DNA of 64,000 nt from Sedimenticolaceae bacterium (GTDB lineage: Bacteria > Pseudomonadota > Gammaproteobacteria > Chromatiales > Chromatiaceae). The notes beneath the pieces are model-generated. The model saw only the letters and a program-made list of their open reading frames with translations, was not told the DNA's origin and made no database searches. Position 1 is the first letter of the stretch. Every line of letters starts with the position of its first letter. The position numbers and the translations under genes are program-made. This document shows positions 25,422-36,164 of this stretch, one piece after another. The stretch covers positions 10,086 through 74,085 of the forward strand of contig OY782758.1 of the NCBI GenBank assembly GCA_963678215.1, in the 5' to 3' direction.

Positions 25422-26160
25422 GAAAGTATGGATTGGCTGAGGTTCTTAACAGGCGGTTGAGGGCCGGATTTTCCAGCGGCATTTCACCCAGGCGCATTGT
25501 AAACAGGAAATACCTATATTTCCTAAGTATTTTTGTGCGGAGCCTTTAGTGATTGAAGCGTGTGTTTTGGAGGAAATGAGCCAGATGATCTGCTATGCGC
25601 GACAAAATGTGTAGATGTTGCTGATGCGGAATAATCTGGCATCCGGTTATGCTGATTTATCCGTTGAATTTCGAAAGACAGGTTTGGTCTCACTTATGCC
25701 AAAGCCTGTTTACAGATGCCTCAATTCTTCCATTGACACGCGTCGGTCAAACCGACCACAGTTTGCTGCGTATGCGCGCTGCCGCAGAAAAATATACCAT
25801 CCGGCAGAATAATCGCCATTACCGCATCGCGCTGTTTGGCGTTGCCTTCCGCGTAGTTTTTACCTAATTTGCCTGAATTCAGGTTGATCTTAGAGAACAG
25901 CCCTTAAAATTGAATCGGTCAATCATCATGTTCAGTACGCGCCATCTCCGCGAGATTGTCTCAGAGATTTCAGGATGAATCACATAATGCGCTTTGCAGC
26001 GCATTTGTTGCTGGCAGATTCAATTTGCAAGTGCAACGCATAGTCTTCAGTAGTCACTATGGTCTGTCATCACGCTTTGGCGCAAGCGGAATTGATCACC
26101 CGGTATCATCAGCGCCAAGCTACTTGAGCATTGCCCTGATGACCTGCGCATGCGCTTGAG

Positions 26161-26470
26161 TCCTGAAGCGCTTTATCAATGGATTTACGACGACGCCAAA
26201 GACGGTGGCACTTGGCATGAACATCTTTGGTGTAGACGCCACAAACCCCGTCCACATTGGCGTTATCGTGTTTGCCTGGGCGTGAGGATTTGGCGACGCA
26301 TACGGATCGTAAGAGCCGACTGCTGACCCTTATTCACCTTGGCAACGTGGCACGAATGAACAAATCAATGGCTTATTGCGGTGTTACTTCCCCAAGGAAA
26401 CGGGTTGTCCGGTATCGGATTGGGCACTGGATGACGTGGTATTGAATATTCAGAAGAGACTCATGCGGAA
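26161..26470 (+). pseudogene. IS30-family transposase relic (internally deleted, frameshifted)
   Basis: Fragments LSPEALYQWIYDDAKDGG, DRKSRLLTLI and, in another frame, [23 protein letters not shown]...LDDVVLNIQKRL match conserved IS30 InsI blocks ([34 protein letters not shown]). They are not in one frame and large parts are missing. Confidence 0.6.
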
Positions 26471-26605
26471 CAAAAGGAGAACAATTAGAAAGGACTCGCG
26501 CGCGGTTAATTGGATGCCAACTTGCAGGAAAAAAGAGGTTTTCTTATGAGAAACAAACGGTTAAATGAAAAATTTGGAAAAATTCCCGCAGAATTAGCAG
26601 GAAAC

Positions 26606-26655
26606 CTTGTAATCTTGTTTTGTGGGACGAAGTCCCTCAAAACAGGCTGTTAGCA
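26606..26655 (+). other. attC-like site preceding the first intact cassette
   Basis: CTTGTAATCTTGTTTTGTGGGAC GAA GTCCCTCAAAACAGGCT GTTAGCA. The arms TGTTTTGTGGGAC / GTCCCTCAAAACA pair with one mismatch. The R' core GTTAGCA is at 26649-26655. The R'' is degenerate (TGTAAT). Confidence 0.45.
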
Positions 26656-26684
26656 TTTTCCAATAGTCAGTCGATATAAATAAG

Positions 26685-27365
26685 ATGAAAATCGAATACG
26701 ACATTGCTATTTCATTTGCAGGTGAACAAAGGCCTATAGCAAAAAGAATTAATGATGTATTGAAGGAAAATGGGATTTCTACATTTTATGATGAAGATAA
26801 AATAGTCGAATTATGGGGAAAAAATCTAGCGGAGCACTTGCCCACAATTTATTCCGAAACAGCTCGTTTTGTTTTATTGATATTATCTGAGGAGTATTTA
26901 AATAAAGTATGGACCAAGGTAGAAAGGCGTGCTGCCATTTCTAGAATGATAAGAAGCAGCAATGAATATGTTCTTATCTATAAGGTAGGTGATGTGTGTA
27001 TGGAAAATGCTCCTGGCCTTAGTCGTGATACCGCGTATATTTCAGACTCACTTAAAAATCCAGAAGAAGTTGCATTATTAATTATGAAAAAGCTTGGACT
27101 TAGCTACTCATTGGAGGAACTCAAAAGCGTAATCCCAGATATAGCTAACAAGAGATTGCTTGTAGAGTCAAATGAGAAACAATTTCAAGACGGGTTTGTT
27201 CCATACATTACACTAAGAAACGAAGTATATCAACACTGCCGAGGGGTGGATTTGAAGATAATTGAAAAAATACTATATGATTTTCTGAATAGCCAAGTTA
27301 ACAGAGGCTTGTACGAATACTATGGTGGCGCTGTTTCTGGTTATCGCATCCCGAATAAAAGCTAA
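26685..27365 (+). CDS. TIR-domain protein (cassette 1)
   Basis: 226 aa with the bacterial TIR pattern YDIAISFAGEQRPIAKRINDVLKENGISTFYDED...FVLLILSEEYLNKVWTKVERRAA. The Glu in W-x3-E is the candidate catalytic residue. The C-terminal ~90 aa are unassigned. Confidence 0.7.
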   Translation: MKIEYDIAISFAGEQRPIAKRINDVLKENGISTFYDEDKIVELWGKNLAEHLPTIYSETARFVLLILSEEYLNKVWTKVERRAAISRMIRSSNEYVLIYKVGDVCMENAPGLSRDTAYISDSLKNPEEVALLIMKKLGLSYSLEELKSVIPDIANKRLLVESNEKQFQDGFVPYITLRNEVYQHCRGVDLKIIEKILYDFLNSQVNRGLYEYYGGAVSGYRIPNKS

Positions 27366-27417
27366 CAATTAAAATACACCCGACCTCCTTCGTCGGCGGG
27401 TGATTTAAGCGTTAGAG
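27361..27417 (+). other. attC site 1
   Basis: GCTAAC (27361) overlaps the stop; arms CACCCGAC / GTCGGCGGGTG; GTTAGAG at 27411-27417. Confidence 0.65.
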
Positions 27418-27427
27418 GTAAAAGAAG

Positions 27428-27877
27428 TTGAGGTATGAATGGTCAAAACTGAATAAGCAGCAAAAAGGAACTTATGGTGAATATTTGGCTAAAATGGAAT
27501 TTACTATGTATGGTTTGTCAGTTTTCACGGCAGAAGTAGATGATAGGGGAATTGACTTCGTGATACGTAATAACAATGGGAATCACTTTGATGTTCAAGT
27601 TAAAACTATTACAGGCAAAAATTACACATACATATCGGAGTCAAAGTTCAATAAGAACCTTTTAGTTTGTTTGTTAATTTTAAAAGAACACATGGAACCA
27701 TCTATGTTCTTAATTAAAGGCTCAGACTGGCATAGTGATGATTCAGGTCTGTTAAATTACAAACATTACCCAAGTTCAAAGGAAGCAGAATACGGCATCA
27801 ACATTACAAAAAGCAGGCTTAATCACTTACAAAAGTATGAATTTAAGAATGTTGTGTCATCAATTTCAGGCCTCTAA
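27428..27877 (+). CDS. Small PD-(D/E)xK-type nuclease-like protein (cassette 2)
   Basis: 149 aa with TTG start. The pattern GTYGEYLAKMEF...EVDDRGIDFVI...FDVQVKT fits E...D...(D/E)xK, a Hjc/DUF4365-like arrangement. Confidence 0.5.
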   Translation: MRYEWSKLNKQQKGTYGEYLAKMEFTMYGLSVFTAEVDDRGIDFVIRNNNGNHFDVQVKTITGKNYTYISESKFNKNLLVCLLILKEHMEPSMFLIKGSDWHSDDSGLLNYKHYPSSKEAEYGINITKSRLNHLQKYEFKNVVSSISGL

Positions 27878-27949
27878 CAATCACATTAAATACGCTCCCT
27901 CCGGTCGCCGGATGCTCGCAAGCTCGCACCGTTTATGTGGGCGTTAGCC
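27872..27949 (+). other. attC site 2
   Basis: TCTAAC at 27873-27878 overlaps the stop; inner CCGGTCGCCGG region; GTTAGCC at 27943-27949. Confidence 0.6.
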
Positions 27950-27959
27950 TCAGGAAAGA

Positions 27960-28769
27960 ATGGACAGAATACCACCTTTTGATGCACAACACTTAAAAGC
28001 TGTCTGCCGAGTCCTAGCGGATACAGAACGAGGATTAAGTGGAAGCGAGATAGAATATCTATTGCAAGATTGTAATATGCAAGATGTTGCGCCGACTATG
28101 ACGAAATGGAAAAGGCTATTCAATGCTATGGTAGAAGCTCAAAATACGCATCAGGTTGGAAATCACCTAATCATGTTTGTAAATCGAGCCATGAATCCCG
28201 TTTCATACTCTAGCAGTAAAGCAGCCTTTGATTGGCGAAGAAGTGAATTGAATGTTGTATTAGCATTTTCCGGTTACTCTGTGCGTGAAGACGGAAAGGT
28301 TGCTCGTTCAGCAAAGGAATCAACTATTTCTGGTGCACGGGCTAAAGCTAACGCACTCAAGCATGCACTAGAAGAACGAAACGCTCATCAGCAAGTTTTC
28401 ACATATTGTAGGGCTGAACTTGTAGATCAAAATTACTTTCATGCTGTACTTGAGGCCATTAAAGGCATAGCAGAGCGTATTCGTTCAATCTCTGGACTTT
28501 CTACCGATGGTGCAGAATTGGTAAACACCGCTTTCTCGGTAAAAGCTCCGCTGATTTCAATAAATCCTCTATCCACAGAAACAGAAATAAGTGAGCAAAA
28601 AGGATTTAGTAATATTCTTGTCGGCCTTTTTGGCGCAGTACGAAACCCAACAGCACATGCACCAAAGACCATGTGGGAGATCACTGAGCAAGATGCATTG
28701 GATGTTCTATCAATGGTTTCATATATTCACCGAAAACTTGATAAAGCAAAGGCTAACAAGGCAAATTAA
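27960..28769 (+). CDS. TIGR02391-like protein with C-terminal HEPN-type Rx4H motif (cassette 3)
   Basis: 269 aa. C-terminal FHAVLEAIKGIAERIR...GFSNILVGLFGAVRNPTAHAPK...DALDVLSMVSYIHRKLD matches my recollection of the TIGR02391 family. RNPTAH is the R-x4-H motif. Confidence 0.6.
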   Translation: MDRIPPFDAQHLKAVCRVLADTERGLSGSEIEYLLQDCNMQDVAPTMTKWKRLFNAMVEAQNTHQVGNHLIMFVNRAMNPVSYSSSKAAFDWRRSELNVVLAFSGYSVREDGKVARSAKESTISGARAKANALKHALEERNAHQQVFTYCRAELVDQNYFHAVLEAIKGIAERIRSISGLSTDGAELVNTAFSVKAPLISINPLSTETEISEQKGFSNILVGLFGAVRNPTAHAPKTMWEITEQDALDVLSMVSYIHRKLDKAKANKAN

Positions 28770-28826
28770 CACGGACCTCAAAAGCTGCTTCGCAGCTGTT
28801 GAGGCCGGTTATTTGCGGCGTTATGT
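28751..28826 (+). other. attC site 3
   Basis: GCTAACAAGGCAAATTAACACGGACCTCAAAAGCTGC TTC GCAGCTGTTGAGGCCGG...GCGGC GTTATGT (28820-28826). The left end overlaps the last codons of the ORF. Confidence 0.65.
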
Positions 28827-30898: not shown

Positions 30899-31390
30899 AT
30901 GAAAATATCTATCTATACCTTTGTTGTATTCTTTATAGTCGGTTGTACTTTTGGAAGTGAAGGTTCTGAGAAAATAATTAAACGTCTAGAATCAGAAGGA
31001 AAGCCATATTTTGTTCACCTTGTTACTACACAAAAGTATGATCAATTACTAGATAAAATAGAAAATGGAGATGATTATTTAATTCGGGCTTCATCCGTAT
31101 TAACTCAATGGGTAGATGCTTCTACCTCATTATCTTTAAGGTTCTCATTATCGAGAGCAATGACGAAAAATCCTGGTGCGGTTATGAGTCTTGTTCCCAA
31201 TTTTTTTTCAATTCCTGAATTATGTACAATCCCTTACATTGAACCGCCCATTGATCTTGCAATAAAACACATTAATGACTCCATTTCTGCTTTGTCGAGT
31301 TATAGCAACTCTAACGGATCTTACATTAAGTGTATAAATATATATAAAGAAATTAGTAAAAACATAACAAAAAGCTCAAGCGGACGCTGA
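30899..31390 (+). CDS. Lipoprotein, candidate cognate immunity protein (cassette 6, gene 2)
   Basis: 163 aa with lipobox FFIVGCTF. It lies 15 nt downstream of the toxin gene with no attC between them. Confidence 0.45.
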   Translation: MKISIYTFVVFFIVGCTFGSEGSEKIIKRLESEGKPYFVHLVTTQKYDQLLDKIENGDDYLIRASSVLTQWVDASTSLSLRFSLSRAMTKNPGAVMSLVPNFFSIPELCTIPYIEPPIDLAIKHINDSISALSSYSNSNGSYIKCINIYKEISKNITKSSSGR

Positions 31391-31419
31391 AAACCGCTCC
31401 GCTTAGCTTGACGTTAGAT
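31372..31419 (+). other. attC site 6
   Basis: CATAAC (31373-31378) lies inside the ORF end; arms AAGCGGAC / CTCCGCTT; GTTAGAT at 31413-31419. Confidence 0.55.
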
Positions 31420-31428
31420 TCGGAAATT

Positions 31429-32091
31429 ATGATGTACAACCCTATAAGCAAACAACCAAGCCCATTTGTTTACATTATTGACTCACCTTCGCCACAAGAT
31501 TTGTTTGAAGGGTATACTATCGGAATGGCTCTACGAGATGCACTGCGGTCTATTCGCATCCCGCATTTCTATACGCTTGCAGTGAATAGAGAAGCATTGA
31601 ATACAGCGATGAGCGGAAAATTACAAGACTGCATTAATCAAATGCAGCCATATGCTTTAGCAACGGATGCGGTACCGCTTATTCATCTATGTATGCATGG
31701 TGCAAATACGGAAATCTCTTTAACCGACGGTTCGTTTATTACTTGGCAAGAACTAAGGCAGTTGTTAATTTCTCATAATCAAATTAAAGGTTACGACCCA
31801 TTCGTATGCATGGCTTCATGCAATGGAATAGAGGCATCATCCATGGCACATGCATATGACAGTGTGTTTAGCTATCTAATTGGAAACACAGGGCCTGTTT
31901 ATCAATCAGATTTAACTATCGCTTACCTTGCTTTTTACAATCAAATATTCGTAAAGAATGCCACTGTTGATCTAGCTGTATCAAAGATGAAAGTGGCGAC
32001 TGGCGATGAAAATTTTTACTACGCTAGTGGCCAAGTAATCAAACAACAGCGGTTCAATGAACTTTCAAATGGCTGGCAAAATAGAATCTAA
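31429..32091 (+). CDS. Minimal CHAT/caspase-like protein (His-Cys dyad; cassette 7)
   Basis: ATG at 31429. The track ORF start at 31408 lies inside attC 6. PLIHLCMHGANTEISLTDGSFITWQELRQLL...DPFVCMASCNGIEAS matches the caspase-hemoglobinase fold pattern (H-G, then hydrophobic strand, then S/A-C-x-G). Confidence 0.5.
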   Translation: MMYNPISKQPSPFVYIIDSPSPQDLFEGYTIGMALRDALRSIRIPHFYTLAVNREALNTAMSGKLQDCINQMQPYALATDAVPLIHLCMHGANTEISLTDGSFITWQELRQLLISHNQIKGYDPFVCMASCNGIEASSMAHAYDSVFSYLIGNTGPVYQSDLTIAYLAFYNQIFVKNATVDLAVSKMKVATGDENFYYASGQVIKQQRFNELSNGWQNRI

Positions 32092-33357: not shown

Positions 33358-34752
33358 ATGGAAGCAGAGATAGCAAGTACTTCAAGTATTTCACCAAAAT
33401 CATTTCTAAAAGCTAGAAGACCAGAGCGTTTTTCCGATTCAATAACAAAGGATGTAGGTAAACTAGATCGTTCTGTTTTGGAATTTCAGTTGTCTACGCT
33501 TAATAGAAGAAATATGGAGTTGGCATTCGAAGATTTCGCTAAAAGACTCTGTGAAAAAGTCATTTGTCCAAATCTGCTAGAGCAAACAGGTCCGGTTGCG
33601 GGTGGTGATGGAAAGGTAGATACACAAACCTTTCCCGTATCAGAGCAATCTAAAGTTCTTTGGTATATTGGAGTTGATGAAAATTCCAACAACGAACGAT
33701 GGGCTTTTGCAGTAAGCACACAAGAAGATTGGAAAGCTAAGTGCAGGAAAGATGTTCGAAAAATAAAAGCCACTGACCGAGATTACAAAAAAGCATTTTG
33801 TGTAACAAATATGTATGCAAAAGCTAATCAGCGAAGTGAGTTGGAAGACTCGTTAAGGGAAGAAACTGGAATTGATGTAAGAATTTTAGATATCTCTTGG
33901 ATACTAGATCAAATCTTTTCCAATGGCTACGAACAATTGGCGATTGATTGTTTGTCGATTGACATAGACTGGCGCCGAGAAATAGAAATCGGAGTTAATG
34001 ACTACGCTAGAAATGTAAGGCTAAATGAGCTCGAAGAATTAATAAAAAATGAAATAGACACTAGTAAAGTGCTCCCTCACCAATTGGATTGGTTATTAGA
34101 GGTCGCGGTATTGTCAAAGGAACTCGAAAAGCCCTCAATTGAAACACAGGGTCTTTTTCTAAGAGCTATTAAAGCGGCTGAAAAATTTGGCACTAATTCC
34201 CATCGATTTAATGCTCATTATCAGTATGCTTGGGCTGCCTATTGGTGGTTTGAAGACATTGCTATATTTGGCGAACAGCTATCGTTATGTTTGCAGATAG
34301 CGAAAGGAATTGAGCAATCGGCTCAATGGGGAGATACAGTATCGCTTCTTGGTCTCTATTCGAGCTACTATCGAGGTAGTGAAGGTGAAAGTGATTTGGA
34401 TATCGAATCGCTTCTGTTAGAGGCAAACGGCGAACTCAATAAGCTTGCAAAAAAGGATGAACGACCCAGTAATTCTCTGATGTCTCGGATCTATATTGAA
34501 TTGTTAAATTTGCATTCCATCAAGAATATAGACCAAGCTTCAGCCATATTTTCATCAATGCACGAAATTATGAAAGAAGGTGAGAAGTTAGTAGGCTTCT
34601 CATTTAATGAAGTATCCGATTTGGTTACCGAGTTGGATAGTTTGTTTGGTGAATTAGAAAGTTATGAAAATTTACTTGACTATATTACAGAGTGCACTTC
34701 ACGTCGTGAGGGCGAGGTTAGGGCCAATGTCATTAACTTAAGGGATAAGTGA
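33358..34752 (+). CDS. Hypothetical 460-aa-class protein, 3' end disrupted by IS insertion (cassette 9)
   Basis: The native reading frame runs to about 34724. The last 8-9 codons and the stop are supplied by the IS inverted repeat. The N-terminal region FEDFAKRLCEKVICPNLLEQTGPVAGGDGKVD...WAFAVSTQEDWK weakly resembles Mrr-type restriction-endonuclease cores. The C-terminal half is helical and repeat-like. Confidence 0.45.
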   Translation: MEAEIASTSSISPKSFLKARRPERFSDSITKDVGKLDRSVLEFQLSTLNRRNMELAFEDFAKRLCEKVICPNLLEQTGPVAGGDGKVDTQTFPVSEQSKVLWYIGVDENSNNERWAFAVSTQEDWKAKCRKDVRKIKATDRDYKKAFCVTNMYAKANQRSELEDSLREETGIDVRILDISWILDQIFSNGYEQLAIDCLSIDIDWRREIEIGVNDYARNVRLNELEELIKNEIDTSKVLPHQLDWLLEVAVLSKELEKPSIETQGLFLRAIKAAEKFGTNSHRFNAHYQYAWAAYWWFEDIAIFGEQLSLCLQIAKGIEQSAQWGDTVSLLGLYSSYYRGSEGESDLDIESLLLEANGELNKLAKKDERPSNSLMSRIYIELLNLHSIKNIDQASAIFSSMHEIMKEGEKLVGFSFNEVSDLVTELDSLFGELESYENLLDYITECTSRREGEVRANVINLRDK

Positions 34753-36164
34753 TTGCGTACGCTTATAGTTTGGTCGGAAAGCGGGGACCGCAACCTTTTT
34801 CAAATGCCTCGGGAAAGACCGACCGGGCCTGACGGGTTCGACCGCATTGACCATGCGTTGCAACAAGCACTGACATAAGTCGAGCACAGCATCAGAGCAT
34901 AACACGCGCATCAGGTTATTCTTCATCGCCGATAAGGCATTGGCCCAGTTGATTTGGTATCGATAATGCCTTTTTCGGTAACGCTCATCGGCCAACCACT
35001 GGGCAATGAACACAAAAATTGCGGTCAGGTTCTGCGCCAGGATTTTGGCCTGAAAATCCTGTAAGACGACCTGGGGCGAACGACCTGAGACATTCTCCAC
35101 CTCCAGGCGTAATTTGCTCCGCTTATACTGCTCCTCAATGCCCCAACGTAAGGCATACAACTTGGCAAACAACCGAGTGGGGTAGGTTTTCTCGTCCAGT
35201 AATGAGGTAGCCAAAACTTCAATCTCTCCAGACTTCAGTTCCACCCGGATTAAGCGTACCAGGATGGGCTTTGTTGGCAAATGAAAGTCTTTACACTGGC
35301 GGGCATTCTGGGCATTGGGTGTCAGCGACACGAGAGTGCTTTTTTGTCCTGATGCCACAAAGGCTTTCACTTCAGCATGGAAGTCCAGGCGTACCCGCGC
35401 ACAAAAGCCCCGTTGTTGCACGCAATGGAAAACAAACAGCCAGAACGCCGCATAGCCCCGGTCATACAAGAAAAGATCATCTGGACGGGACTCCAGGACA
35501 TACTCACTGGCAAAAGTGCGTTCACCCTCCGCATAGGGAGCCAAGTCGGCTTGAATCACCCGATCATTGAGCACATCATACAGCGTAGACCAGCGGGCCA
35601 AAGGGACGCCATCGCCTTTGCGGTGACCAAAATGTGCGGCAATCTGAGGGGTAGAGGGCAACCGGGCAGTAGAACCATCCACGGCCAAGACACGCAAACC
35701 TTGCCAACGTCGTTCACCGAGTTGTTGGGAAGCCAGATCAACCAGACGGTCATTGAGCCAAACCAAGGCGTGTGGGTTGAGTTTTTGACGTGCTCGACAC
35801 AAAGCGGCGGGGGTGACTGGCTTCACGTTGGGTTGTGCTTCCTGTAACACCTCAAAAGCCTGATCCAGCTCATTGCGCAGGGTGCCTTTACGGAAATTGA
35901 GGCGTAGAGGGACTAAGCGGGATAGCGGTAAATCGCGTTGGCGGGAAAAATCACCGACCTGAGTGCGGGCTTGTTGGAGAAAGTCGTCTGAGCGAATAAC
36001 ATCCTTTATAGGGTCATAGATGTTTCTAAATAATGCGCTGAATCTGGGCAAGATCGGTTGTCGGGACTGGGGCTGAAAGGGACATGAAATGCTCCTGAGT
36101 AAACGATGAACTGGTAAAATACCTTACACTATTCAGGCACTTAGTGCTTAAGTTAATGACATTG
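34725..36164 (-). mobile_element. IS4-family insertion sequence (1440 bp) with about 27-bp imperfect terminal inverted repeats
   Basis: IRL CAATGTCATTAACTTAAGGGATAAGTG (34725-) and the complement of IRR CAATGTCATTAACTTAAGCACTAAGTG (-36164). The first 18 bp are identical. GC content is visibly higher than in the flanking cassettes. No direct target duplication was recognised. Confidence 0.8.
34738..36051 (-). CDS. IS4-family DDE transposase
   Basis: 437 aa with DDE blocks VLAVDGS, LFLYDRGY and YALRWGIEEQYKRSK (Y-x2-R-x3-E-x6-K). Confidence 0.85.
   Translation of the reverse strand: MPRFSALFRNIYDPIKDVIRSDDFLQQARTQVGDFSRQRDLPLSRLVPLRLNFRKGTLRNELDQAFEVLQEAQPNVKPVTPAALCRARQKLNPHALVWLNDRLVDLASQQLGERRWQGLRVLAVDGSTARLPSTPQIAAHFGHRKGDGVPLARWSTLYDVLNDRVIQADLAPYAEGERTFASEYVLESRPDDLFLYDRGYAAFWLFVFHCVQQRGFCARVRLDFHAEVKAFVASGQKSTLVSLTPNAQNARQCKDFHLPTKPILVRLIRVELKSGEIEVLATSLLDEKTYPTRLFAKLYALRWGIEEQYKRSKLRLEVENVSGRSPQVVLQDFQAKILAQNLTAIFVFIAQWLADERYRKRHYRYQINWANALSAMKNNLMRVLCSDAVLDLCQCLLQRMVNAVEPVRPGRSFPRHLKKVAVPAFRPNYKRTQSLIP

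Follow-up and report, generated by a model that had tools for sequence, protein, structure and literature searches.

The window analysed here is the whole 64,000-nucleotide (nt) stretch of a Sedimenticolaceae bacterium genome (GenBank assembly GCA_963678215.1, contig OY782758.1, positions 10,086 to 74,085 of the forward strand). Plain coordinates refer to the window, while those prefixed C1 refer to the genome contig. At 26685-27365 on the plus strand lies an open reading frame (ORF) encoding a 226-amino-acid (aa) protein that starts with a TIR domain, and the ORF list shows no second ORF of at least 40 aa within it, whichever strand is read. The gene is carried on an integron cassette with one ORF and its own attC, as had been proposed in an earlier interpretation made from the letters alone (the sequence-only reading). 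The features that define the gene and its cassette are as follows.

26470-26655, plus strand: attI-type platform remnant with the core GTTAGCA at 26649-26655, defined by blastn copies and an eight-copy alignment
26650-27411, plus strand: TIR gene cassette, 762 base pairs from crossover to crossover, with a 35-nt leader, one ORF and its own attC
26685-27095, plus strand: TIR domain, residues 1-137, defined by Pfam TIR_2, AbTir and BtTir alignments, an AlphaFold2 (AF2) model and Foldseek
27096-27365, plus strand: C-terminal part, residues 138-226 and the stop codon; in a stand-alone AF2 model a long helix, then a winged-helix-like domain
27360-27417, plus strand: attC of the TIR cassette, 58 nt (covariance model R2, 37.5 bits, E 5.2e-7)

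The TIR assignment of the N-terminus is borne out by both profile and structure comparisons. Pfam TIR_2 matches residues 7-120 (E 1.4e-13, 51.8 bits against a cut-off of 28) and Pfam TIR scores 23.4 bits (cut-off 21.3). When PDB sequences were searched with phmmer and with a family profile, AbTir and BtTir came out on top, followed by plant TIRs such as Roq1, L6 and RUN1; AbTir and BtTir are thus the closest solved relatives by sequence, with profile E-values of 1.7e-9 to 6e-9. The AF2 model of the whole protein has a mean predicted local distance difference test (pLDDT) score of 78.9, with the TIR part mostly at about 84-95. In Foldseek it is closest to the active-filament structure of AbTir, 7uxu (template modelling score TMt 0.85, root-mean-square deviation 2.2 Å). 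Foldseek returned 54 PDB matches at E≤1e-3, and TIR domains account for 50 of 50 among the matches listed.

By alignment, the domain is of the AbTir and plant-TIR sequence type, with every residue known to matter for cleavage of nicotinamide adenine dinucleotide (NAD+) and for cyclisation of ADP-ribose (ADPR) kept. The segment KVW76TKVE80 aligns over KDW204TNYE208 of AbTir, and the active-site equivalents here and in AbTir are E80 and E208, W76 and W204, K74 and K202, T77 and T205, and G45 and G174; L48 is also kept in the AbTir-type active site. In AbTir, the E208A protein is inactive and cyclisation requires W204 (Manik et al., doi 10.1101/2022.05.07.491051). The same work found that T205A lowers NADase activity, that K202 touches the diphosphate of a bound NAD+ mimic, that G174 of the BB loop is required for activity, and that TIRs making cyclic ADPR signals typically have an aromatic residue where AbTir has W204 (doi 10.1101/2022.05.07.491051). 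E80 occupies the position of AbTir E208 and SARM1 E642 on helix alpha-C and is invariant in 137-148 family representatives, while at least 90% of 137 representatives retain W76. These two residues form the W-x3-E motif named in the sequence-only reading, which had asked whether the catalytic glutamate would survive a proper alignment; the glutamate is present. The BB loop bears a distinct ELWGK(N/D)L motif. Overall, the protein resembles AbTir and BtTir (PDB 7uwg, 7uxu, 8g83 and 7uxr) in its fold, catalytic glutamate, cyclisation tryptophan, the K202 and T205 equivalents and the BB-loop glycine. It differs in that identity is only about 21% and in its domain order: AbTir, which is not cassette-borne, has an N-terminal coiled coil and a C-terminal TIR domain, whereas here the TIR domain comes first, ahead of a helix and a winged-helix-like domain.

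Although the TIR N-terminus is real, the protein is no recognised member of any named defence system. PADLOC, whose use the sequence-only reading had recommended, returned matches at the level of the TIR domain (PDC-S66 at E 3e-13, ThsB1 at E 3.6e-7, and RT-TIR) and no validated single-gene system. NCBIfam NF042941, the retron-TIR family RT-TIR_XII, matched with E 2.6e-15 and 56.2 bits against a cut-off of 600, over profile positions 339-462 only. PDC-S66 and retron-TIR are the best library TIR matches; in both, only the TIR part of a longer protein is matched, and there is no reverse transcriptase here.

The C-terminal part of about 90 aa, previously described as unassigned, has no Pfam match even at E 1 (residues 138-226). 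Modelled alone with AF2, this tail has a pLDDT of 81.4 and a predicted template modelling (pTM) score of 0.75, and its layout is a long helix (about residues 143-163), a short strand, a helix, a second helix and a beta hairpin. A Foldseek comparison of the modelled C-terminus had also been suggested; run against the PDB and a viral library, it gave top matches that are all winged-helix domains (cullin WHB, CAP/CRP, E2F-DP, LmrR, Fur and linker histone), none of which reached E 1e-3. The matches are weak, with template modelling (TM) scores of 0.5-0.63, probabilities of at most 0.99 and best E-values of 0.058 in the PDB and 0.013 in the viral library. We call the tail winged-helix-like, as its predicted structure suggests, and make no claim of DNA binding. 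Its only sequence relative is the metagenome protein P0002 (230 aa), which is the single full-length relative of the TIR protein, with 55% identity overall and 35% in the tail. The tail is near neutral and not basic, with an isoelectric point (pI) of 6.8 (4.9 in P0002), and DNA binding is therefore not suggested. A word search restricted to the tail returned the query itself only, a metagenome scan with the C-terminal alignment returned nothing, and BLASTP of the C-terminus against proteins P0063, P0013 and P0054 gave no significant match.

The cassette ends downstream in an attC whose R'' box, AGCTAAC at 27360-27366, overlaps the TAA stop codon and whose R' box is GTTAGAG at 27411-27417. The bottom strand of 27360-27417 folds into an R box, an unpaired spacer and a bulged L box. 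An attC model built from nine sites in the window (R1) located 26 sites elsewhere in the genome, and a covariance model (R2) was built only from those 26 sites outside the window; it is R2 that detects the site at 37.5 bits. In the 26 sites, 10 of 11 L-box pairs vary on both sides, and 86.8% of cells pair compared with 29-40% when the pairing is slid. The surrounding array stands out in composition, with a GC content of 36-42% between 26.6 and about 39 kb, compared with about 50% on either side, and most ORFs there are separated by an imperfect palindrome that starts with xxxTAACAA and ends with GGCGTTA(G/T). A regex attC finder and counts of the GCGTTAK motif were uninformative.

The sequence-only reading had placed attC sites on both sides of the gene. 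While the downstream site stands, the upstream boundary is of a different kind: models R1 and R2 gave no attC detection within 26450-26700. Instead, blastn showed that 26470-26654 recurs at seven other places in the genome with about 81-96% identity, and one copy (C1:2164166-2163983) sits directly between an intact integrase gene (intI) and its first cassette. In the alignment, all eight copies are conserved up to ...CAGGCTGTTA and completely divergent beyond; the platform sequence is shared until GGCTGTTA and unrelated past it, and the conserved end reads ...TCAAAACAGGCTGTTA. Because of the intI-proximal copies, the shared end and the lack of an attC detection, we assign the upstream boundary to an attI-type site, with an inferred crossover between G26649 and T26650, exactly where the eight copies part. 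The platform has lost its integrase, and its first cassette is the one with the TIR gene. The eight attI-type copies in the 2.48-Mb genome, located by blastn, are listed here.

C1:36555-36740: attI-type copy of the TIR cassette platform (window 26470-26655)
C1:230683-230795: attI-type copy
C1:1289174-1289274: attI-type copy
C1:1322966-1323148: attI-type copy
C1:1506163-1506367: attI-type copy
C1:2163983-2164166: attI-type copy, beside the intact intI
C1:2345793-2345903: attI-type copy
C1:2370439-2370620: attI-type copy, beside an intI pseudogene

A model-detected attC lies downstream on the cassette strand in seven of the eight copies, with none listed near the copy at 2370439-2370620. The only intact intI is a 340-aa ORF at C1:2164152-2165174 (TIGR02249, 433.7 bits), flanked by an attI and an attC of the same type. 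It lies about 353 kb from the array if the single contig is a circular chromosome. No intI is found in the 64-kb window; the pseudogene mentioned above spans C1:2369912-2370277 and another intI fragment lies at 2086571. Next to the platform, the place of intI is taken by debris (25.4-26.47 kb) adjoining the type VI secretion system (T6SS) genes tssA and tssM.

25422-26469, plus strand: gene debris between T6SS tssA and the platform, consisting of short broken ORFs without hidden Markov model (HMM) support

About 550 nt of the debris are repeated at 88% identity beside another attI copy (C1:2345302-2345849), and parts recur at C1:231151. Four attI copies (those of the window and near 2345, 230 and 1506 kb) also share left-hand debris, and the platform plus debris seems to have been duplicated. 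By eye the debris looks transposase-like, with an IS30-type C-terminus, but this is no more than a visual label: NCBIfam and other HMMs were blank in the fragments and no intact copy exists in the genome. Separately, a hairpin, TCCCGCAGAATTAGC(A/G)GGA followed by a minus-strand T-run (26583-26603), is conserved in all attI copies. It lies about 50 nt before the attI core and is terminator-like, pointing to the side of the lost intI.

In an exhaustive HMMER search over 1.84 billion representatives there were 5,526 hits, 3,538 of them below 1e-10, and all align to residues 1 to about 140 only. Close relatives of the whole protein were found neither in 100 genomes of the same family nor among the GTDB species representatives, and none came from a collection of metagenome contigs either, where a scan with the full-length pair gave TIR-domain-level relatives only. 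The lack of a close whole-protein relative in the collections searched marks the cassette as a rare import, and its GC content, 36.4% where the genome has 49.6%, is consistent with its having been acquired from another source. In a Pfam survey of 137 TIR family sequences, the same-subfamily TIR module was fused, at either end, to WD40, Sel1, HEAT, CHAT, AbiJ_NTD3, AAA and cold-shock domains. Joining of one TIR module to many unrelated domains is the pattern of an effector with interchangeable sensors. The nearest TIR relatives checked, P0002 and the TIR-cold-shock protein P0004, are both encoded by single genes between attC-like palindromes with unrelated neighbours, and the R2 model detects one attC on the P0002 contig. 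P0004, a 226-aa protein with a same-subfamily TIR and a cold-shock domain (metagenome contigs, loci L011 and L012), is a case in which this TIR module is cassette-borne with another kind of tail, a nucleic-acid-binding one.

A role in defence is the most reasonable reading of this gene. On balance, we think it somewhat probable that the product is a self-contained sensor-effector TIR NADase, carried on a single-gene cassette and providing one-protein abortive infection gated by the helix and winged-helix-like tail. In the predicted resting state, the long helix and the winged-helix-like domain would hold TIR domains apart. Upon phage infection, the C-terminal domain would bind a phage-derived ligand, either protein or nucleic acid, and thereby cluster the molecules. 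The clustered TIR domains would then stack head to tail and form a composite active site from two TIR domains; in characterized TIR NADases, this two-subunit site forms only by self-association (PMC12847820; doi 10.1101/2022.05.07.491051). NAD+ would be cleaved to ADPR, to a cyclic ADPR isomer or to both, and the infected cell would be starved of NAD+ before the phage matures, with no partner gene needed.

This one-protein model draws on the logic demonstrated for SpbK in Bacillus subtilis, on a Thoeris survey that covers stand-alone TIRs and on the promiscuity of the TIR module. In SpbK, a non-TIR domain docks on a phage protein and thereby clusters and activates the TIR domains (PMC12847820), and stand-alone TIRs were treated as NAD+-depleting effectors in a systematic survey of Thoeris (Yirmiya et al., doi 10.64898/2025.12.03.692087). 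By analogy, the protein described here may share with SpbK the plan of one protein, a non-TIR sensor and a clustering step that switches on NAD+ cleavage (PMC12847820). The two proteins are not homologous, and SpbK is absent from the PDB sequence matches at E≤1. SpbK also differs in having its sensor at the N-terminus, in being encoded on ICEBs1, an integrative and conjugative element, and not on an integron, and in its trigger, which is the portal protein YonE.

The two cassettes immediately downstream encode a nuclease and a HEPN protein.

27428-27949, plus strand: mini-nuclease cassette with a 149-aa PD-(D/E)xK-like ORF (27428-27877) and its own attC at 27872-27949, from the genome-wide model search
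27960-28826, plus strand: HEPN/Ymh cassette with a 269-aa ORF (27960-28769) and its own attC at 28751-28826

The idea, put forward in the sequence-only reading, that the TIR, nuclease and HEPN genes might co-operate as a block has no support here. Each gene has a separate attC, the nuclease cassette occurs elsewhere with other neighbours, and the neighbours of P0002 are unrelated. The nuclease, a protein with weak DUF4365 and PDC-M02A matches, has a copy of its cassette at C1:2159213-2158672 in the intI-linked array. This copy is 99.8% identical over 27409-27950, encodes an identical protein and sits between a cassette for a 322-aa protein and a small two-gene PIN-domain cassette (VapC-like by eye). 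The 99.8% stretch runs from R' core to R' core and starts at 27409, at the edge of the R' core of the TIR cassette. Its boundaries are direct evidence of recent IntI-type movement between the intI-linked and the orphan arrays, and crossover at the attC of the TIR cassette has been used in this lineage.

The HEPN protein, which is unique in the genome, is a full-length homologue of PD-Lambda-3_B (PADLOC E 1.8e-132, positions 1-266 of 270) and matches Pfam Hypoth_Ymh at E 1.4e-42. The array thus carries a homologue of a component from a validated defence system. The domains given for PD-lambda-3 in a review table include a PD-(D/E)xK nuclease domain (PMC10952713), and the nuclease and HEPN proteins could be a PD-lambda-3-like system split over two cassettes. 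As a candidate for PD-Lambda-3_A itself, the 149-aa nuclease was rejected: it gives E>1 with the PADLOC model of 159 positions, which matches nowhere in the genome, and its gene is also present at a place that lacks the B gene. Any pairing that involves the nuclease and HEPN proteins is between these two, in a PD-lambda-3-like manner, and not with the TIR gene. Four cassettes from the TIR gene, at 31408-32091, lies a 227-aa protein that is weakly caspase-fold-like (Peptidase_C13, E 0.037). A split type IV Thoeris formed by the TIR protein and this 227-aa protein was rejected as well, since Peptidase_C14, PADLOC and NCBIfam are all blank for the latter. The sole Peptidase_C14 match in the genome is a 1023-aa ORF at 1.31 Mb, 1.3 Mb away, and no SIR2_2-type ThsA occurs in the genome. 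By these tests the TIR protein is not a component of Thoeris, retron-TIR, CBASS or PD-lambda-3 systems.

Several observations count against a self-contained, tail-gated NADase. The fold matches behind the winged-helix assignment are weak (best E 0.013-0.06), and the alignment behind it has two sequences; the near-neutral tail offers no hint of DNA binding. The PADLOC matches are domain-level, with none to a validated single-gene system. Promoter scans found no sigma-70-like site in the retained attI region or the 35-nt leader, and if the cassette promoter lay within the lost intI the gene may be silent. Additionally, to judge from the residue itself, the aromatic W76 makes a signalling role with a remote effector possible. 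The last point leads to a ThsB-like signal generator, in which a cyclic ADPR isomer would activate an effector on another cassette or elsewhere in the genome; we consider this distinctly unlikely. Candidate effectors would be the 227-aa caspase-fold-like protein (as a split type IV Thoeris), the HEPN protein or the mini-nuclease. W76 does lie where all cyclase-type TIRs have an aromatic residue, the PADLOC matches include ThsB1, the TIR of type IV Thoeris is also short with its catalytic glutamate at 79 (close to E80), the same array has a weak clan-CD protease match, and two nuclease-type proteins follow directly downstream. However, the ThsB match is domain-level and there is no adjacent effector here: the described Thoeris types are all adjacent two-gene operons (doi 10.64898/2025.12.03.692087), whereas every candidate in this array lies behind at least one complete attC. 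The caspase-like gene is 4 kb and four cassettes off and encodes a protein without a match in Peptidase_C14, PADLOC or NCBIfam, independent movement is seen for the nuclease cassette, the TIR relatives have other neighbours and SIR2_2 is missing from the genome. We give only a very small chance to the specific case in which the cyclic ADPR product of this TIR protein with its winged-helix-like tail acts in trans on effectors from other cassettes of the array, with the 31408-32091 protein, the HEPN protein and the nuclease as candidates. If true, this would mean that arrays assemble signalling immune circuits from separately mobile one-gene parts and not from whole operons.

Two further explanations take the gene out of active phage defence. 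Integron arrays hold many unexpressed cassettes, and this one could be stored, essentially silent cargo in an orphaned array with neither integrase nor cassette promoter, a reservoir for recombination by the distant IntI. Debris in place of intI next to the platform, the lack of a promoter-like site upstream, eight platform copies against one intact intI in the genome and the generally unexpressed state of many array cassettes all fit such storage. We nevertheless regard it as rather unlikely, since the gene has an intact ORF with no catalytic residue lost and holds the first position, where expression is normally highest; transcription by read-through, or from a promoter in the conserved 185-nt attI region that escaped recognition, is also possible. 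Storage concerns expression and not function, and is compatible with a self-contained NADase. An offensive or host-directed factor, either a T6SS-delivered toxin or a Tcp/BtpA-like modulator of eukaryotic immunity, seems extremely improbable. The array abuts T6SS tssA and tssM and includes a Tlde1-type effector cassette, and the nearest solved TIRs include AbTir and BtpA/TcpB from pathogens. Yet the T6SS adjacency is a debris junction and not an operon, PAAR, MIX, Rhs, VgrG-adaptor and signal sequences are all missing from the protein, no immunity gene is present on the cassette, and an N-terminal TIR with a C-terminal winged-helix-like domain differs in layout from the Tcp proteins, which have an N-terminal coiled coil and a C-terminal TIR.

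A self-contained TIR NADase would fit a known setting. Integron cassettes are an established location for small phage-defence systems, and roughly 60 are said to have been tested (Kieffer, Darracq and Getz, all 2025). Like those integron-borne defence cassettes, which are small, mostly single-gene, supplied with their own attC and stacked in chromosomal arrays, the TIR cassette is a single-gene unit, but its platform has lost the integrase. The cassette is one more case of a familiar kind, here with a nearly orphan tail, and it does not overturn current understanding. Should the protein act by itself, the one-gene defences would gain a TIR sensor-effector of very compact size (226 aa), useful in studies of how TIR assembly is gated by a minimal non-TIR domain. 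Together with its relatives, it points to TIR-plus-variable-domain genes as recurrent integron cassette cargo. Additionally, the locus indicates that an array can persist behind attI after integrase loss, presumably serviced in trans by the one intact IntI.

Further observations concern the rest of the array and other arrays in the genome. Both models detect an attC at 31362-31419 that lies outside the training set (36.1 and 47.6 bits); this site closes the Tlde1-plus-lipoprotein cassette and overlaps ORF 30899-31390 at its end. The cassette array is interrupted by an IS4-family transposase at 34738-36051 on the minus strand (NF033592, E 5.6e-53, GC 53%), the 3' end of which overlaps the end of a 464-aa ORF (33358-34752) by 15 nt. 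Lastly, the genome has seven TIR_2 matches, and TIR genes head at least two arrays. At C1:1504627-1506126 (L093), the genes that come after an attI copy encode a ThsB-like TIR protein of 160 aa, a protein of 155 aa that by eye resembles SLATT-type membrane proteins, and another TIR protein, of 182 aa.

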